Below, one piece after another: positions 2-56,475 of a stretch of 64,000 nucleotides of DNA (positions are counted from its first letter, which is position 1; the number at the start of each line of letters is the position of its first letter). The stretch is from Candidatus Bathyarchaeota archaeon (GTDB lineage: Archaea > Thermoproteota > Bathyarchaeia > 40CM-2-53-6). Under the pieces are notes generated by a model, which did not search any database, was not told where the DNA came from, and saw nothing but the letters and a program-made list of their open reading frames with translations. The translations under genes were made by a program, and so were the position numbers. Location of the stretch: NCBI GenBank assembly GCA_963753065.1, contig CAVWAQ010000001.1, forward strand, positions 195,736 to 259,735. The letters run 5' to 3'.

Positions 2-1069
2 AATGGGACCAAGGTGCTCGCGACAGGTATGGAAGTCACAGTGGACGCGAAGAGGGGAGTCGTATACGAGGGGATCATGCAGGAAGCCATGGCTCCTCAA
101 GTCCAGCAAGTCGCGGCCTCAGGCTCGACCGGATTCTCTGAGGCACCGGTAACTGGAACGAAGGTCCTCGTCAACCTCGGTGAACCGGACCTTGCGGAGA
201 AAGTAGCTCAACTCCCAGCCGACGGGGTCGGTCTTCTACGCATGGAATTCATCGTCAACGACCACATAGGAAAGCATCCGATGTGGCTGATTGAAAACAA
301 GCATCCGGAGGAGTTCGTTGACAAACTCGCGGAAGGGCTCGCGACATTCTGCAGAGCCTTCCATCCAAGACCTGTTGTGCTCAGGTTCAGCGACTTCAAG
401 ACGAACGAGTACGCCAAACTGCAAGGCGGAGAGAAATACGAAGGCGGAATAAAGGAAGCGAATCCGCTGCTCGGATTCAGAGGAGCAAGCCGCTACACCG
501 ATCCAAAGTACGAGCCAGCGTTCAGGCTTGAGATCGCGGCCGTCAAGAAAGTCAGAAACGAAATGGCCCTGAAGAATCTGTGGTGCATGATCCCATTCAA
601 CAGAACGGTCGATGAGTTCGTGAAGATCCGTGAACTACTTCAACGCGAAGGCCTCAAACAAGACGACGACTTCAAACTCTGGATCATGGCAGAAATCCCC
701 AGCAACATAATTCTAGCTGACGAATTCTGCAAAGCAGGAGCAGACGGCTTCTCGATCGGCAGCAACGACCTCACCATGCTCATACTAGGCGCAGACAGAG
801 ACAACGAGATACTGGCACCATTGTTCGATGAGAGGAACCTTGCAGTAAAGCGTGCGATAAAGAGTCTGATAGAGACAGCTCACCAGTACGGCAAGACAGT
901 CAGCATCTGCGGACAAGCTCCAAGCGTATACCCAGAGTTCACAAGATTCCTAGTCGAATCCGGTATCGATAGCGTATCCGTTAACCCCGACGCCGTCGTA
1001 CAAACTAGGAAACTCATAGCACAAGTTGAGCAAAGGATCATCCTCGAAAAGCTCACGCGGCAACACTGA
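2..1069 (+). CDS. ppsA: phosphoenolpyruvate synthase (pyruvate, water dikinase), C-terminal PEP-utilising domain; 5' end lies outside the window
   Basis: The frame is open to the window edge. Motifs GLLRMEFIV, FSIGSNDLTMLILGADRDN and SICGQAPS are typical of the PEP-utiliser TIM-barrel domain. Confidence 0.85.
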   Translation, partial: NGTKVLATGMEVTVDAKRGVVYEGIMQEAMAPQVQQVAASGSTGFSEAPVTGTKVLVNLGEPDLAEKVAQLPADGVGLLRMEFIVNDHIGKHPMWLIENKHPEEFVDKLAEGLATFCRAFHPRPVVLRFSDFKTNEYAKLQGGEKYEGGIKEANPLLGFRGASRYTDPKYEPAFRLEIAAVKKVRNEMALKNLWCMIPFNRTVDEFVKIRELLQREGLKQDDDFKLWIMAEIPSNIILADEFCKAGADGFSIGSNDLTMLILGADRDNEILAPLFDERNLAVKRAIKSLIETAHQYGKTVSICGQAPSVYPEFTRFLVESGIDSVSVNPDAVVQTRKLIAQVEQRIILEKLTRQH

Positions 1070-4648: not shown

Positions 4649-4910
4649 ATCGAAGAACGAGTTGAAGCTCGAGCTTCAAGGGGAAGGGCACACTTTCTGC
4701 AATCTGCTACAGTGGATACTGCTTCAGGACAAGGGCGTTGACATGGCAGGATACGACGTTCCACACCCTCTGCTCCCGAACGCAATTCTGTACATACGGA
4801 CAAAACGAGAGTCATCTCCCGAGAAGGCACTGACGCGAGCCTTGGCAAAGGTAGGCGAGATGAGCAACGAGTTCATGGAAAAACTCGACAAAGCCGCCGT
4901 TCCAAGCTGA
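4626..4910 (+). CDS. rpoL: DNA-directed RNA polymerase subunit L (Rpo11)
   Basis: ELKLELQGEGHTFCNLLQWIL...DVPHPLL is the typical RpoL/Rpb11 signature. Confidence 0.85.
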   Translation: MNLKVLARSKNELKLELQGEGHTFCNLLQWILLQDKGVDMAGYDVPHPLLPNAILYIRTKRESSPEKALTRALAKVGEMSNEFMEKLDKAAVPS

Positions 4911-4926
4911 TCCGAACAGATCGCAG

Positions 4927-5292
4927 CTGAAGCTTATTCTCACGGATTCGAAACTGGCCAAACTAGGCGACGCATACGTAAACTTCGTCTTCTCACTCGG
5001 CAGATCAAAAGCTCTTGAAGAGCCACAGGGCATCAAAGTCAGCGATAGAATTCTCGCGGAAGCTCTCAGAAAATCTGGACTGAGGCAAGACCTACCGCAT
5101 CGTACGACTCGTCAGGACTGCGCGAACGCGGTTGAGGCTCTCCTCGTGTACGGCTACCTGAATAAGCTGGTTTCGCTAGAGGAAACGGTCGAGCAAATAG
5201 CAGCTGCACCAGATTCCCCCGTCGATGTCTTCGTTCAGCTGATCAAGGCGGTTGCGGAGAAGATCGAAGACGGGAAGTCCGATCCCGAATGA
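4927..5292 (+). CDS. archaeal RNase III-like small protein (candidate); no canonical start codon in the open frame
   Basis: An open frame from 4864 to 5292 fills the gap between rpoL and the DUF99 gene. It translates to LILTDSKLAKLGDAYVNFVFSL...EALLVYGYL, with an LGDAY motif like the RNase III signature. It is missing from the ORF track because there is no ATG/GTG/TTG; CTG 4927 or ATT 4936 are possible starts. Confidence 0.45.
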   Translation: MKLILTDSKLAKLGDAYVNFVFSLGRSKALEEPQGIKVSDRILAEALRKSGLRQDLPHRTTRQDCANAVEALLVYGYLNKLVSLEETVEQIAAAPDSPVDVFVQLIKAVAEKIEDGKSDPE

Positions 5293-5855
5293 TCAAGAAA
5301 GAGGTTCGTGTTCTCGGAATAGCTTCCACTTCGCCCCATCAGAGAGATGGCGCTTCGACTCATGTTGTTGGTGTTGTGTACAGGGGAAACCGTTGGCTTG
5401 AGGGCGTCATGCGAACGGTCATACCACGGGAACAATCGAACTTGACTACCGAGACAGCCAGGATGGTAACCAGATCCCCACACTTACCTCAACTCAGAGT
5501 CATCGTCCTGGACGAATTGATCACCCGGTCCGGAAGCTACATTGACATCAAGGCCCTCAGCAAGAAGACGAGACTTCCAACAGTGGCTGTTCTTCGAAGG
5601 GAGATCCCGACCAAACGTCTTTCGAAGAATCGCGCAAGAAATCAACGGGCACTCGAAACGCTTGCCGGTCTACCCTGCAGAAAGTGGAAGGCCGCGGGCA
5701 AGACATACTTCGTCTACTCAGCAGGCATGGGCGGGGTCGACCTCGATGAGCTTCTCGAAGTCTGTGCCTCAAGGGAAGGTCTCCCAGAGGCGGCTAGGGT
5801 TGCGAGGATTACGGCTTCTTCGCTTCAGAAGTTCCTAGCCGGACACGTGCCCTAA
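5289..5855 (+). CDS. DUF99 / UPF0215 family protein (EndoV-like fold)
   Basis: N-terminus KKEVRVLGIASTS...VVGVVYRG resembles the archaeal DUF99 family. The ATG overlaps the preceding stop (ATGA). Confidence 0.6.
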   Translation: MIKKEVRVLGIASTSPHQRDGASTHVVGVVYRGNRWLEGVMRTVIPREQSNLTTETARMVTRSPHLPQLRVIVLDELITRSGSYIDIKALSKKTRLPTVAVLRREIPTKRLSKNRARNQRALETLAGLPCRKWKAAGKTYFVYSAGMGGVDLDELLEVCASREGLPEAARVARITASSLQKFLAGHVP

Positions 5856-5913
5856 GGAAATGATCTGACTTTGCTCGTATCCACGGCTTCCTCTGAATGT
5901 TTTAATAGAGACA

Positions 5914-6267
5914 GTGAGTCTCTCGGTGGCGGATCGGCGAAAATTGAGATTCTGTCCAAAGTGCGGATCGAGGCTCGTACCCGTCAAGAAGGCCAAGTCG
6001 ATTGTGCTGAGCTGCCCTGGTTGCGAATACGAGACTAGGAAACCCGAAAGGAGCATCCAACCGGTCAAACCCGAGAAGGAGAATATCATCGTCATCGGCA
6101 GAGAAGAGCAGAAGATCAGGACTCTGCCCAAGATGAAGGTCGAATGTCCCAAGTGCGGCCACATGGAGGCCTTCTACTGGCTAGTGCAAACCCGCGGCGC
6201 CGACGAGTCATCCACTCAATTCTTCAGATGCGCAAGCTGCGGAACCACCTGGCGAGAGACTTCGTAG
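5914..6267 (+). CDS. tfs: transcription factor S (TFS / RpoM-like)
   Basis: N-terminal CPKCG zinc ribbon plus a TFIIS-type C-terminal ribbon: CPKCGHMEAFYWLVQTRGADESSTQFFRCASCGTTWRE. Confidence 0.85.
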   Translation: MSLSVADRRKLRFCPKCGSRLVPVKKAKSIVLSCPGCEYETRKPERSIQPVKPEKENIIVIGREEQKIRTLPKMKVECPKCGHMEAFYWLVQTRGADESSTQFFRCASCGTTWRETS

Positions 6268-34440: not shown

Positions 34441-35607
34441 TCAAGGGTGCTTGACGTAGGTTGGTTCCGCAGTGTCCTTTGCGTAAACCTGACGGCTCGA
34501 GAGTCTCCCGGTCAGCTTCGTGCCACTGATGCTTGCTGTGATTGCCGTGAAGAGTGCACTCAGGTTCTCGCCTGTTCGTGCGCTTATGGCAACGATCTCC
34601 GTTCCAATGAATCCTTCGCGAATCACGTCAAGAGCGCGTTCGAGTTGTCTAGATTCAATCAAGTCGATCTTGTTGGCGCAAACTATGATATCCCCGTCTG
34701 TGCCAATTTCTCTCAGGATCTTGTTCATGGATGAACAACGACGGCTGATGGTGTGAGCCTCCTCACTTGCGTCTACGAATAGCAGGATCACATCAGAGTG
34801 TGCAATTTCACCAAATGTGGCAGTGAATGCTTTCACGATTGTAGGGTGCATGTCTTCTATGAATCCGATTGAGTCTATCAGCAAGAATTCTGAATCACGT
34901 GATGCTTCGGCTCGCACCTTTCTTGCGAATGTGGACAGAGTTGTAAACGGTCCAAGTCCCACATTCTTGGTCTCGGAGGCCAACCGATTGAATAAGGTCG
35001 TCTTCCCAGCTTGCGTGTATCCTGCAAGTGCAACTATGGGGAACCCCAGCTCTCGACGTCTTCCTCTGATGATCTCTTTCTTGTGATCCAGATCTCTAAG
35101 CTGTGATTCCAGACGACTTATTCTGTTGCGTGCCGCGCGAGTATACTCTTGGAAAGGGTAGTCGCCCGGCCCCATCCAGCCAACTTGCTCGCCCATTATT
35201 CCTCTCAGTTTGATGAACTCGCGACCCCAAGACAACGTGTACTTCAACTTGGCAAGCTTGATCTGAAGTTTGGCCTCCTTGGTCATCGCGCGTTTGTCAA
35301 AGACCTCTAGAATGAGCAGGTTCCTGTCTATGACTCGTACTTCGCCTCCTAGGCGCTGCTGGATCTTGAAAACCTGACTGCTTGGCAGCGTGTTTGCGAA
35401 TATTACAATCTCAACTTCGCGCGAATCGACGATTTCCTTCAGTTCTTCAACCTTGCCTGGGCCTATGAAGTAGGAGTGGTGGTCGCTGTTTCGTTTCTGA
35501 ATGATGACTTCGACGACATCGTATCCTATGTTTTCCGCCATCGCTTTTGCTTCTTCAGCCCGCGGAGGTAGTGATGGCAACTTGCACTCCACCACTACAG
35601 CACGCAC
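34441..35607 (-). CDS. hflX: GTPase HflX
   Basis: HflX N-domain, G1 motif GYTQAGKTTLFNRL, G3 DSIGF and G4 NKID. Confidence 0.9.
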   Translation of the reverse strand: MRAVVVECKLPSLPPRAEEAKAMAENIGYDVVEVIIQKRNSDHHSYFIGPGKVEELKEIVDSREVEIVIFANTLPSSQVFKIQQRLGGEVRVIDRNLLILEVFDKRAMTKEAKLQIKLAKLKYTLSWGREFIKLRGIMGEQVGWMGPGDYPFQEYTRAARNRISRLESQLRDLDHKKEIIRGRRRELGFPIVALAGYTQAGKTTLFNRLASETKNVGLGPFTTLSTFARKVRAEASRDSEFLLIDSIGFIEDMHPTIVKAFTATFGEIAHSDVILLFVDASEEAHTISRRCSSMNKILREIGTDGDIIVCANKIDLIESRQLERALDVIREGFIGTEIVAISARTGENLSALFTAITASISGTKLTGRLSSRQVYAKDTAEPTYVKHP

Positions 35608-35723
35608 GAGTCATCTCGCCTCGAGGTTTTCCCGAAGATTCAATCTTGGGCGGTGTGCTATTTAGGGATGCCATGACTTTCCGCAATGACCAGTGAAGTT
35701 GAGGTCAGAATCGATGTCAGCTT

Positions 35724-36032
35724 CTAGTCGTAGTATCTTATTTCGAAGTCATCGAATTCCCCTTTCCATTCCTGTCGTCTCAAGTCCACATCAACCACGT
35801 ACGCGTTCGGAGGACCACGCCGACAGAAATCGACGATCATCTTTACGTTGATTTCTTCTCCCTCGAAGATCGCTTCCACGCGGCCGTCAGGAAGGTTGCG
35901 AACCCAACCTGTAAGGCTCAGCTGCTTCGCCTTCGATGCCGTCTCCGCGCGGTAGAAGACGCCCTGAACTTTGCCCGTAACGATCACATGCGCCCTGATC
36001 TTCACAGATTCCAACCTTCGCCGGAGATTCAA
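35724..36032 (-). CDS. acyP: acylphosphatase
   Basis: VTGKVQGVFYR...GWVRNLPDGRVE is the acylphosphatase signature. The start may be the GTG giving VKIRAHV. Confidence 0.85.
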   Translation of the reverse strand: MNLRRRLESVKIRAHVIVTGKVQGVFYRAETASKAKQLSLTGWVRNLPDGRVEAIFEGEEINVKMIVDFCRRGPPNAYVVDVDLRRQEWKGEFDDFEIRYYD

Positions 36033-36114
36033 TTGCCCGATAACGCCCTAGTTTGCATACAACATTTTCGGAGCAGATCGACTTTACCCAAAGGCTAAAA
36101 CCCGCCGAGAGAAC

Positions 36115-44644: not shown

Positions 44645-45308
44645 CTATTCTCTCCGGTACGAGTCCGGCCATATGATCTGTCTCAACTGGTAGAGGCTCC
44701 TGAGCCTGTAATCTGGTTCAACCTTGAGCTCGGACTGTGCCGCAACCGGTTGTAGCACAAGAGCGGTTTGTGCGCCTGCTGCTCGACCCGCTTCGACATC
44801 GTACCTGCTGTCTCCAACGTAGATGCTTTCCTTCGGGGCTACTCCGAGCTTCTTGATTGCGGTCGTGACGAGCGCTGGGTCTGGCTTGCCTTGTTCAACT
44901 TCGTTGATTCCAACTATTGCGTCGAGCAGCGCGTCCATTCCGAAATACTTGACTATCTTCATTATTCTGTCGGTTCGTGTTCGATGAGGCGACTGCTGAC
45001 CTCACTCCCCGGACTTTCATGATTCGGAGCATCCCCAAGGCTCCGTATCGTGGTTTCACCTCTAGGCGCCATGTATTCTCAAAGAGCTGACCCTTCAGCT
45101 CGACAAGTTTCCCGTATGGTCTGCTCGCCATGGTTTGAGATTAGTTGTCTGGCGATATCAACAGTCCTCAAACCAAGCCTGTCGATCACTTCTTGGTCCC
45201 GAAATTCCAAACCAAGCGTCTTTAGCGCGCCTCGCCACGATTGCAGGTGAACCCAATTCGAATCGATCAATGTTCCATCAAGGTCAAAAATGACGGCTTT
45301 GATGACAT
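44645..45308 (-). pseudogene. HAD-superfamily hydrolase (phosphatase) disrupted by several frameshifts
   Basis: HAD motif I (VIFDLDGTL) follows a stop with the ATG one nt out of frame. The middle part (EVKPRYGA...VRSAVASSN) and the C-terminal part (GKPDP...YVGDSRYDVEAG) lie in three different frames. Confidence 0.7.
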
Positions 45309-45445
45309 GTCATCCTGCTCACGTCACACACGCTTCCGTATGGCTCTAGAGGGCACGACGCAAGCCAATGGGATATCGTCATATCTCAGTAGAGCATCGA
45401 GCGAGCAAAGAACTTAAAGACTCATTTGCTCGCTTTCGCCGTGGT

Positions 45446-45614
45446 GCTCCGGTGGTGTAGCCCGGTTAGCGCTGAGGCCGAGAGCATAGCGGCCTTATCC
45501 GTTGGCGAGTCAGCGGAGGCCACTCGAGCCGTTGATCGCGGGAGATCGTTCGCAGACGGTCCGCGAATTCGAAAACGAGGAGGCCCCTCGTCGCGAGTCC
45601 CGCCCGGAGCACCA
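45446..45614 (+). tRNA. tRNA-Glu(UUC) gene interrupted by four short introns; CCA encoded
   Basis: Acceptor stem GCTCCGG/CCGGAGC, then A, then CCA. Removing 45469-45482, 45497-45523, 45543-45567 and 45574-45597 gives a 76-nt cloverleaf. It has a GTGT D-arm with GG, anticodon arm GCGGC-CTTTCGA-GCCGT and T arm GCGGG-TTCGAAT-CCCGC. Confidence 0.65.
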
Positions 45615-45659
45615 ACAAACCTCAAAGCGACCGGCAGTCAAACAGCCTGCAGAACGGAG

Positions 45660-46343
45660 ATGGGGTCAGTGAGACTTGAGGAACTGGACCTGACAGAGTG
45701 CATTAAGATCGAGGATCCAGATGCGCTCATCATAGTCGATATGCAGAACGATTTCATGCCATCCGGTGCTCTTGCTGTCAGGGGCGGGAACGAGATAGTT
45801 GCTCCCACAAATCGTCTTGCCGAAGTGTTCCATTCTAAGGACAGGCTCGTTGTTATGACGCAGGATTGGCATCCTCCGAACCATCTTTCGTTCGCCAGCA
45901 CCCACGGCATGAAACCATACGCTCTTTACGAGTCCAATGGGATAGGCCCGGTCCTGTGGCCCGATCACTGTATTCAGGGAACGAGAGGAGCGGATTTCCA
46001 TCCCCAAATTCAAGCCAGACTGGCAAAAGCCATTATCCGGAAGGGATACCATGTGGCGGTGGACAGCTACTCAACATTCATTGAGAATGACAAGAAAACG
46101 CACACTGGTCTCTCAGGATATCTGAATGCGCTTGGAAAGAAGCGTATCTTCCTGTGTGGACTTGCGTTGGACTACTGTGTCTATCACTCAGCCGTGGATG
46201 GCCGGGATTTGGGGTTCGACGTAGTTGTACCCATAGACCTCACAAAAGCTATCGACTCGCCGCCAGGTCGATTGTCTGACACGTTGGAAATCATGGCCGA
46301 GAGACAAGTCGAATTCGTCAGGTCGACTGGCATCGTGACTTGA
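45660..46343 (+). CDS. pncA: nicotinamidase / pyrazinamidase (isochorismatase family)
   Basis: ALIIVDMQNDFMPSGALAV, TQDWHPPNH and the FLCGLALDYCV catalytic Cys. The upstream part of the 305-aa ORF overlaps the tRNA and is not coding. Confidence 0.85.
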   Translation: MGSVRLEELDLTECIKIEDPDALIIVDMQNDFMPSGALAVRGGNEIVAPTNRLAEVFHSKDRLVVMTQDWHPPNHLSFASTHGMKPYALYESNGIGPVLWPDHCIQGTRGADFHPQIQARLAKAIIRKGYHVAVDSYSTFIENDKKTHTGLSGYLNALGKKRIFLCGLALDYCVYHSAVDGRDLGFDVVVPIDLTKAIDSPPGRLSDTLEIMAERQVEFVRSTGIVT

Positions 46344-56083: not shown

Positions 56084-56385
56084 CCACTTTGGGTGCCATC
56101 GATCGAAGGCTGAAAGGACGAGTCATTGCAATTGAGAAGACTGGCGAGACAGCAACAAGAGAAGGGGAGACTTGGGAGAAGTGCGTCTTTACACTTGAGG
56201 TCACGCGTTTCTCAAAGCGTGCTCCTAATGAGATCGTTCCGGACGACCTCAAGGGCAAGAAGATCAAGCTAGTTAGGCATTGTCTCTACGATTGGCATTA
56301 CAGATCGGGCGTCGAGAAGACACTCAGCGCAGAAGAGACTGACCACCTACTGCGGGGGGAGCCTTCTTCGACGGTCTTTTGGTAG
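56056..56385 (+). CDS. hypothetical protein
   Basis: 109-aa ORF overlapping the end of the corrinoid gene, with no recognisable motif. The start may be GTG near 56081. Confidence 0.3.
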   Translation: MGGSKEAQVTTLGAIDRRLKGRVIAIEKTGETATREGETWEKCVFTLEVTRFSKRAPNEIVPDDLKGKKIKLVRHCLYDWHYRSGVEKTLSAEETDHLLRGEPSSTVFW

Positions 56386-56475
56386 TTGAAGGATAACTTT
56401 CACGAACCTCTCCATCCCCTTTCGTCTACCTATTCGTTTATTCTCGAAACTTGATTGTGCTTAATTCGATTACAC

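Follow-up and report, generated by a model that had tools for sequence, protein, structure and literature searches.

A tRNA-Glu(UUC) gene with four relaxed bulge-helix-bulge introns in a Bathyarchaeia genome

A tRNA gene divided into five exons

A 64,000-nucleotide (nt) stretch of DNA from a Candidatus Bathyarchaeota archaeon (GenBank assembly GCA_963753065.1, contig CAVWAQ010000001.1, forward-strand positions 195,736 to 259,735), hereafter called the window, carries at positions 45446 to 45614 what an earlier note, made from the sequence, took to be a single tRNA-Glu(UUC) gene requiring the removal of four introns. Our analysis upholds this core reading through the contrast in conservation between exons and introns, the pairing of the intron helices, a natural intronless counterpart of the predicted product, and a conserved promoter. 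We estimate a probability of roughly 0.9 that the locus is a genuine tRNA-Glu(UUC) gene, maintained by selection and interrupted by four introns with relaxed bulge-helix-bulge (BHB) motifs. Comparative sequence data demonstrate the predicted exon/intron structure, its helices and their conservation, the promoter, and the selection acting on the gene. The parts of the gene, in tRNA numbering, are as follows.

45446..45614, + strand: tRNA-Glu(UUC) gene, complete; 169 nt, five exons, four introns, encoded CCA
45446..45468, + strand: exon 1, positions 1-20b; acceptor 5' strand, D stem 5' strand and most of the D loop
45469..45482, + strand: intron 1, 14 nt at 20b/21 (D loop); C17a-G18-G19-U20 pairs with GCCG (45477-45480)
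45483..45496, + strand: exon 2, positions 21-34; D stem 3' strand, position 26, anticodon stem 5' strand, C32, U33, U34
45497..45523, + strand: intron 2, 27 nt at 34/35 inside the anticodon; G29-G30-C31-C32 pairs with GGCC (45518-45521)
45524..45542, + strand: exon 3, positions 35-53; U35, C36, G37, A38, anticodon stem 3' strand, variable loop, T stem 5' strand
45543..45567, + strand: intron 3, 25 nt at 53/54; C48-G49-C50-G51 pairs with CGCG (45562-45565); inner helix of 7 base pairs (bp), 45544-45550 with 45555-45561
45568..45573, + strand: exon 4, 6-nt micro-exon TTCGAA; T-loop positions 54-59
45574..45597, + strand: intron 4, 24 nt at 59/60; U54-U55-C56-G57 faces CGCG (45592-45595); inner helix of 6 bp, 45575-45580 with 45586-45591
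45598..45614, + strand: exon 5, positions 60-76; U60, T stem 3' strand, acceptor 3' strand, A73, CCA

The two ends of the gene provide the acceptor strands GCTCCGG (45446-45452) and CCGGAGC (45604-45610), followed by A73 and an encoded CCA (45611-45614). Here the earlier note proved exact in both coordinates and sequences, having described a perfect 7-bp acceptor stem, an adjacent A and encoded CCA, and a total length of 169 nt. When the four inserts (45469-45482, 45497-45523, 45543-45567 and 45574-45597; 14, 27, 25 and 24 nt) are taken out, a 79-nt sequence is obtained, GCTCCGGTGGTGTAGCCCGGTTAAGCATAGCGGCCTTTCGAGCCGTTGATCGCGGGTTCGAATCCCGCCCGGAGCACCA, which ARAGORN folds as a tRNA-Glu(ttc) cloverleaf with the anticodon loop CTTTCGA and the T arm GCGGG-TTCGAAT-CCCGC that had been expected. 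The predicted junctions are GGTTA|AGCAT, CCTT|TCGAG, GCGGG|TTCGAA and TTCGAA|TCCCGC, and removal of the inserts restores a cloverleaf that carries U33, the T loop TTCGAAT and the 7-bp acceptor stem. As read from the sequence, no segment other than exon 4 restores the consensus of the T loop. The five exons, colinear over 169 nt, share a single upstream promoter, and thus the locus is neither a split nor a permuted tRNA gene.

The unspliced locus was matched neither by ARAGORN, with or without its intron option, nor by Rfam at the gathering threshold or at E<=1. Standard tRNA finders miss the gene because it is cut into five pieces by four short introns. The intron option of ARAGORN also miscalls tRNA-Glu genes with two or three introns as Asp, Gly, Leu, Ala or Lys genes with one odd intron (L043, L050, L053, L060, L067, L070 and others in the metagenome collection described below).

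Conservation of the exons and covariation within the introns

The protein eIF2alpha is encoded 1.4 kb downstream of the tRNA locus, and an identical protein is present on contigs from NCBI, JGI, ENA and Logan. These contigs share the gene order of the window (PNP, HAD, tRNA locus, isochorismatase/pncA, L44e, S27e, eIF2alpha). A scan of GTDB species representatives identified close relatives of this peat-soil archaeon among metagenome-assembled genomes (MAGs) of Candidatus Bathyarchaeia, several of them from SPRUCE peat. Four of these representatives, whose eIF2alpha proteins are 83-98% identical to that of the window, share a locus of 164-169 nt at 87-99% identity, and in a five-way alignment of the window with these four species all substitutions and indels are confined to the predicted introns.

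To widen this comparison, metagenomes were scanned for a D-arm pattern with room for 0-30 nt in the D loop, which yielded at least 120 contigs; these contigs and their loci are denoted here by L-numbers. A spliced-alignment script placed the mature sequence on each contig. The script misplaces some junctions, such that L119 and L138 were re-parsed by hand and L104 is carried without a settled parse. Among the matches listed, of which 124 loci were scored, the gene family has zero, one, two, three or four introns at the same and at other positions; at least 46 distinct four-intron sequences occur on at least 54 loci, and none of the 124 is a five-intron gene. One member of the collection, L072, is a natural intronless tRNA-Glu(UUC) that is identical to the predicted product of the window at 75 of 76 positions, differing only at position 57, and that scores 64 bits against Rfam model RF00005, for which the gathering score is 29.

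Thirty distinct sequences with the architecture of the window were aligned (alignment A3) in 169 columns that match the window coordinates. After leaving out the 26 exon columns that are fixed by the search pattern, variable columns number 0 of 50 in exons and 51 of 90 in introns (Fisher p=1e-13). All five exons are invariant in the 30 orthologues. The search pattern fixes columns 10-23 of exon 1, leaving columns 1-9 free, and columns 38-49 of exon 2, whereas exons 3 and 5 are free of this constraint. Exon 4 is invariant despite variation in both introns that adjoin it.

The proposed BHB structure is likewise maintained. Overall, 95.2% of alignment cells are paired in this structure, compared with 34-46% when the pairing partners are slid by one to three columns. 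Seven pairs, all located in the inner helices of introns 2 to 4, change on both sides, and none of 500 shuffles reached the observed covariation score; these conservation and covariation statistics are to be read with the caveat that the orthologous sequences are related by descent. The locus thus combines purifying selection on its exons, freely varying introns, and compensatory changes in the intron helices.

A candidate promoter precedes the gene.

45405..45420, + strand: archaeal promoter; purine-rich B-recognition element (BRE)-like GCAAAGAA (45405-45412), then TATA-like CTTAAAGA (45413-45420)

This block is situated 26-33 nt upstream of the mature 5' end. In nearly all of 19 loci of the window's architecture that were compared, the sequence GAGCAAAGA(A/G)CTTAAAGAC is kept, while sequences farther upstream and those 3' of the CCA diverge freely. 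Such a pattern fits a BRE/TATA promoter with a very short leader.

Four relaxed bulge-helix-bulge motifs

The intron boundaries were checked against the register rule for archaeal BHB introns, in which the 5' cut falls 2 nt past the 4-nt exon strand and the 3' cut falls 2 nt past the complementary intron strand. All four inserts present a central helix in this symmetrical register, namely CGGT:GCCG (4/4 pairs, one of them G-U), GGCC:GGCC (4/4), CGCG:CGCG (4/4) and TTCG:CGCG (3/4), the last with the one mismatch that had been described for intron 4, here identified as U-C. Other insert placements in the same sequence give 4/4 pairs in 3% of cases and at least 3/4 in 17%, and therefore the joint chance of obtaining the four helices is about 5e-6. 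Across the 30 sequences, the central helices of introns 1 to 4 are 100, 100, 100 and 78% paired, respectively.

Introns 2, 3 and 4 contain inner helices of 8 bp (with two G-U pairs), 7 bp and 6 bp, respectively, and intron 1 has none. The lengths for introns 3 and 4 agree with those originally proposed, while the helix of intron 2 had been given as 7 bp. Sequence inspection reveals no convincing exon-side outer helix for introns 1 to 3, where it is absent or 1 bp only: the candidate for intron 1 is a single C17-G22 pair, and the first candidates for introns 2 and 3 are the non-pairs C28xC36 and U47xU55. The strict hBHBh' motif, which requires an outer helix of at least 2 bp to close each 3-nt bulge, is therefore not formed. 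As judged from these pairings, the four motifs are of the relaxed HBh' or bulge-helix-loop (BHL) class. Thus the earlier claim that each insert fits the BHB rule stands for the central helices and their cleavage register, and fails for the strict motif, as introns 1 to 3 are without an exon-side helix and intron 1 is without an inner helix. The earlier note had also counted three introns at non-canonical positions, but all four (20b/21, 34/35, 53/54 and 59/60) are non-canonical.

Intron 1 lacks an inner helix, and therefore its 5' cut would fall in a hairpin loop (BHL-like). Its central helix is retained through one U-G to U-A change, although 9 of its 14 columns vary among the 30 orthologues, and other lineages have ACCG, ATCG or ACTG as the intron strand, each of which still pairs with CGGT. 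Intron 2, whose inner helix pairs 45498-45505 with 45510-45517, has no exon-side helix and so is of the HBh' type. In its central helix G-C is replaced by G-U in two of the 30 sequences, and its inner helix exhibits two-sided changes from G-C to A-U in two sequences and from U-A to C-G in nine.

The central helix of intron 3 is invariant and excludes the T stem, the two pairings being mutually exclusive, and its inner helix has three pairs with two-sided changes, A-U to G-C and U-A to C-G among them. In the central helix of intron 4, U54 pairs with A in 18 sequences and with G in 12, and pairs 56 and 57 do not vary. Two-sided changes affect two pairs of the inner helix of this intron, and near-identical strains differ by 1 nt in the length of its hairpin loop. 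Its exon-side helix would be the T stem itself, which becomes contiguous with the motif only once intron 3 has been removed. An A opposite U55 would pair, yet CGCG is kept in 26 of the 30 orthologues. In the minimum free energy (MFE) fold of the full precursor, the 3' strands CGCGA of intron 3 (45562-45566) and TCGCG of intron 4 (45591-45595) pair with each other.

A predicted route to the mature tRNA

Ordinary archaeal tRNA splicing, by the splicing endonuclease EndA and then an RtcB-type ligase, is the best-supported mechanism, with the enzymes and the splicing itself inferred from the motifs and from what is established for TACK archaea (PMC5829648, PMC6379350), and the order from the structure. 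The gene's own BRE/TATA promoter would drive a precursor of about 170 nt containing the four short introns. Within each intron, a 4-nt strand would pair with the exon just 5' of the splice site to create the central helix of a BHB-type motif, to which introns 2 to 4 would add their own hairpins of 6-8 bp. EndA would then cleave 2 nt 3' of each central-helix strand, and the RtcB-type ligase would join the exons to yield a standard tRNA with its encoded CCA.

The EndA involved would have to be of the broad-specificity type, either (alpha-beta)2 with an L1/CSL loop or epsilon2, because three of the motifs lack an exon-side helix, and relaxed motifs are known to require broad-specificity enzymes (PMC6379350). 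By analogy with other TACK archaea, the host enzyme is expected to be an (alpha-beta)2 EndA with an L1 loop, in keeping with the expectation for relaxed motifs in TACK archaea generally (PMC5829648). A tblastn search of about 1.08 Mb of sequence with the EndA of M. jannaschii (query checked against PDB 1a79) gave matches solely beside single-intron tRNA-Glu(CUC) genes of another lineage. On six metagenome contigs of that lineage (L055, positions 5547-6122 of the minus strand, and L088, L092, L128, L133 and L156), a full-length EndA homologue of 191 amino acids (aa), 31-33% identical to the M. jannaschii protein, is encoded 60-1200 nt from a tRNA-Glu(CUC) gene that is interrupted once, by an intron in the T loop.

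Within the T arm, splicing would need to be stepwise, with one intron cut and its exons ligated before the other, because simultaneous cleavage of both introns would set the 6-nt exon 4 free. Starting with intron 3 would be most economical, since the central helix of this intron (C48-G51) sequesters the T-stem strand that intron 4 needs. On these structural grounds, it is plausible that intron 3 leaves before intron 4.

Weighing other explanations

Several observations weigh against the interpretation of the locus as a functional four-intron gene. The invariance of the exons is partly enforced by the way the sequences were collected, since 26 exon nt are fixed by the search pattern and the score cut-off tolerates few exon mismatches. 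Neither an EndA nor a ligase was found in the 64-kb window or the syntenic contigs (Pfam on the 30 open reading frames [ORFs] of the window; tblastn with EndA over about 1.08 Mb). In the central helix of intron 4, the mismatch is itself conserved: U55 stands opposite C, unpaired, in 26 of the 30 sequences, and is replaced by U-A in three and U-G in one. Ensemble energies computed with ViennaRNA over all 15 splicing intermediates place every BHB conformation above the ensemble free energy, by 3-9 kcal/mol, and give a different structure as the MFE fold. The same calculation bears on the order of removal implied by the earlier note: the T stem is indeed free only after intron 3 has been removed, but formation of the intron 4 motif costs 7.4 kcal/mol when intron 3 is present and 7.3 when it is absent, which provides no order signal.

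Could the locus instead be a decaying or unexpressed tRNA pseudogene riddled with insertions, while a working tRNA-Glu(UUC) is encoded elsewhere? None of the tools that were run recognizes the unspliced locus, the adjoining HAD gene is frameshifted in the window, so that some local decay or assembly error has occurred, and a further point against a functional reading is that the search reached the window and its syntenic loci, leaving room for a second, uninterrupted tRNA-Glu(UUC) elsewhere. Decay is nonetheless difficult to reconcile with the absence of any exon substitution between lineages that diverge by as much as about 17-30% in their flanking proteins and vary freely in introns and flanks. 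Moreover, compensatory changes keep the intron helices, the promoter is conserved, and the insertions sit exactly in the BHB cleavage register. We consequently regard a pseudogene as highly improbable. The artifact explanation, by which the inserts would be assembly or sequencing errors of one contig, draws on the single-base indels that separate the window from near-identical contigs, including one in the intron 4 loop and the two HAD frameshifts. It is already refuted by independent assemblies, given that the four-intron architecture was assembled separately in NCBI, ENA, JGI and Logan contigs and is also present in the four GTDB species representatives and in dozens of JGI metagenome contigs.

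A real gene with a different number of introns or different junctions is improbable too, if slightly less so than a pseudogene. Because exon 2 and the end of intron 2 each contain GGCC, a 27-nt deletion shifted by 6 nt, at 28/29, is formally possible and would produce the anticodon CUC; in the T arm, the CGCG strands of introns 3 and 4 pair mutually in the MFE structure and the central helix of intron 4 is mismatched. Only the junctions listed above, however, match the boundaries between invariant and variable columns, and only they reproduce the natural intronless sequence of L072. Three specific candidates were examined and rejected. The 28/29 deletion, as read from the sequence, gives the loop CACUCGA with anticodon CUC, places A33 where U33 is universal, and has no central helix in register. 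Shifted T-loop junctions expand the loop to 8-9 nt or lose the helix, and removing one large intron from the T arm fails to bring back the TTC consensus.

A second architecture at the same locus

The architecture of the window, with introns at 20b/21, 34/35, 53/54 and 59/60, is here called type A. Other contigs carry at the same syntenic locus a type B gene with introns at 10/11, 20b/21, 37/38 and 59/60 (L011, positions 65-219; L085; L138; L106), or a three-intron version, type B', that is missing the D-loop intron (L111, L130). In a neighbor-joining tree built from 642 aligned residues of four downstream proteins, B-type loci are sister to A-type loci three separate times (L138 with L151 and L011 with L052, each at 100% bootstrap, and L130 with L087 at 98%). 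Pairwise DNA homology between the two types resumes at or just past the tRNA 3' end, and in three of four pairs it does so within the 3' exon; one pair regains homology about 270 nt upstream as well. The two types have different promoters and leaders.

These comparisons suggest, as the simplest reading, that a whole cassette of promoter plus gene was replaced by recombination; retention of an ancestral polymorphism is the alternative. We tentatively propose, at somewhat less than even odds, a broader model in which two four-intron cassettes with their own promoters have been swapped at one syntenic locus in at least three sister pairs, with one breakpoint in the 3' exon. Under this proposal, alleles would spread by recombination and not by intron-by-intron gain and loss, and the 6-nt exon (3 nt in L119) would enforce an ordered cycle of cutting, ligation and cutting. 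If this is true, the clade would offer natural, closely related presence/absence material on the gain, loss and movement of BHB introns.

Further peculiarities were seen in this collection. L138 and L011 have a 9-nt direct repeat of the tRNA 5' end located 7 nt upstream of the type B 5' end (GCTCCGGTG in L138, GCTCCGATG in L011), which may be a footprint of recombination or integration. The type B introns at 10/11 and 20b/21 (L011 and others) have one central helix in common, in which exon CGGT pairs with an intron strand GCCG that precedes AG or AA, and reside in similar exon contexts, CCGGTGG and CCGGTTA. Duplication of an intron into a look-alike target would leave such a shared helix.

L119 (positions 285-465, minus strand) appears to hold introns at 34/35 and 37/38 that are parted by a 3-nt exon, TCG, in addition to D-loop and T-loop introns, and its 37/38 intron contains a degenerate copy of exon sequence (TTGCTGATCGAGG). 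In L044, L057, L065, L079, L091, L093 and L136 there is an apparent intron of 63-64 nt at 34/35. This is probably a 22-nt intron at 34/35, a short exon TCGAGC, and a second intron near 40/41, in which case these genes have three introns rather than two.

Leader and neighboring genes

Two further features flank the gene.

45442..45445, + strand: 5' leader TGGT, complementary to the 3' end ACCA (45611-45614); in an acceptor-stem scan, pairing runs to 45442/45614
45660..46343, + strand: pncA/isochorismatase-family gene, 227 aa

The last three bases of the leader, GGT, do not vary among the 19 type A loci compared, and with two exceptions these loci also have T as the fourth base. Pairing of TGGT with ACCA would lengthen the acceptor helix in the precursor, a function we infer from this complementarity. 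Downstream, an ORF of 305 aa with a TTG start (45426-46343) crosses the tRNA. On near-identical contigs, the genes called here encode 224-227 aa (PF00857) with a start at about 45660, which agrees with the earlier dismissal of a 78-codon N-terminal extension of pncA as spurious.

Upstream of the tRNA, the gene for a HAD-family hydrolase (window 44645-45309, minus strand) is spread over three reading frames by two frameshifts, near 44973 and 45091-45113, whereas its orthologue in L001 (647-1312) is intact and encodes 221 aa. The broken copy is either a pseudogene or a product of indel errors in this assembly. A scan of the window's intergenic gaps for acceptor stems plus CCA, made with a crude filter, yielded no convincing candidate for another cryptic tRNA. 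Four gaps of 440-640 nt (4649-5288, 35542-36114, 56084-56712 and 1070-1510) have no Rfam match at E<=1 and no ATG-started ORF of at least 90 aa. They could hide further fragmented RNA genes, given how this tRNA escaped detection.

Relation to known systems and significance

A maximum of three introns per archaeal tRNA gene was stated in 2014 (PMC4033280) and again in 2021 in the tRNAscan-SE 2.0 paper (PMC8450103), and the earlier note had adopted this ceiling. It is outdated according to Valentin-Alvarado et al. (2024; PMC11291895), a study of Asgard archaea from wetland soil in which 92-95% of tRNA genes are interrupted, more than half of them with multiple introns. Its Supplementary Data 4 includes 'intron 4' columns and tabulates four introns for the Arg-TCT and Ile2-CAT genes of Freyarchaeia by tRNAscan-SE and R2DT, and for Leu-GAG and the Trp-CCA gene of Atabeyarchaeia-2 by R2DT. 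The four-intron tRNA-Glu gene therefore ties the highest intron count recorded in these sources and does not exceed it. Phrase searches of the literature retrieved no report of a four-intron archaeal tRNA, the record having appeared only in that supplementary table, and the literature searched contained nothing on tRNA introns in Bathyarchaeia.

The gene resembles those of Thermoproteales (Pyrobaculum, Thermofilum and Caldivirga; Sugahara et al., 2008, via PMC4033280 and PMC8450103), which also contain short BHB or relaxed introns at non-canonical sites that include the D loop, 53/54 and 59/60, so close together that one must leave before the next motif forms. Those hosts, too, belong to TACK and have the broad-specificity EndA that is expected here by analogy. 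Thermoproteales are, however, hyperthermophiles with at most three introns per gene, whereas the present gene has four, including one inside the anticodon (34/35), together with a 6-nt exon, and occurs in a mesophilic clade of peat and sediment Bathyarchaeia. With the Asgard Atabeyarchaeia and Freyarchaeia it shares a wetland soil habitat and four-intron tRNA genes, but these archaea belong to another phylum and the tRNAs concerned are different, their tRNA-Glu genes having one or two introns (PMC11291895). The Asgard genes are still detected by tRNAscan-SE, and the accessible text gave neither covariation support nor tRNA-numbered positions for them.

Nuclear tRNA genes of the red alga Cyanidioschyzon merolae (PMC3728597) likewise carry ectopic BHB introns, whose sites are the D arm, 37/38 and the T loop. 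In this eukaryote there are at most three introns per gene and some genes are permuted, and the order of intron removal was shown by reverse transcription PCR, whereas the order proposed here comes from the sequence. The split and tri-split genes of Nanoarchaeum equitans and Caldivirga maquilingensis (PMC4033280) are similar in that pieces are joined through BHB-like junctions at intron-site positions. Unlike those genes, the five pieces described here are colinear in one 169-nt unit with one promoter, and no trans-splicing is needed.

An essential tRNA gene has thus been wholly overlooked by ARAGORN and Rfam, and as a consequence Bathyarchaeia MAGs will look devoid of tRNA-Glu(UUC). This apparent loss distorts the tRNA counts used in genome-quality standards as well as inferences from codon usage, and automated annotation of these lineages also introduces wrong isotypes besides gaps. 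Furthermore, the gene extends extreme tRNA fragmentation, with four introns, an anticodon intron and a 6-nt exon, to an abundant mesophilic lineage of sediment and peat outside Thermoproteales and Asgard archaea, and by analogy it would imply a broad-specificity EndA that acts on relaxed motifs at moderate temperature. Finally, the matches listed here make up a comparative series in which one gene family has zero to four introns at roughly eight positions and two architectures occupy one orthologous locus. Such a series is suited to studying how BHB introns arise, move and are lost.

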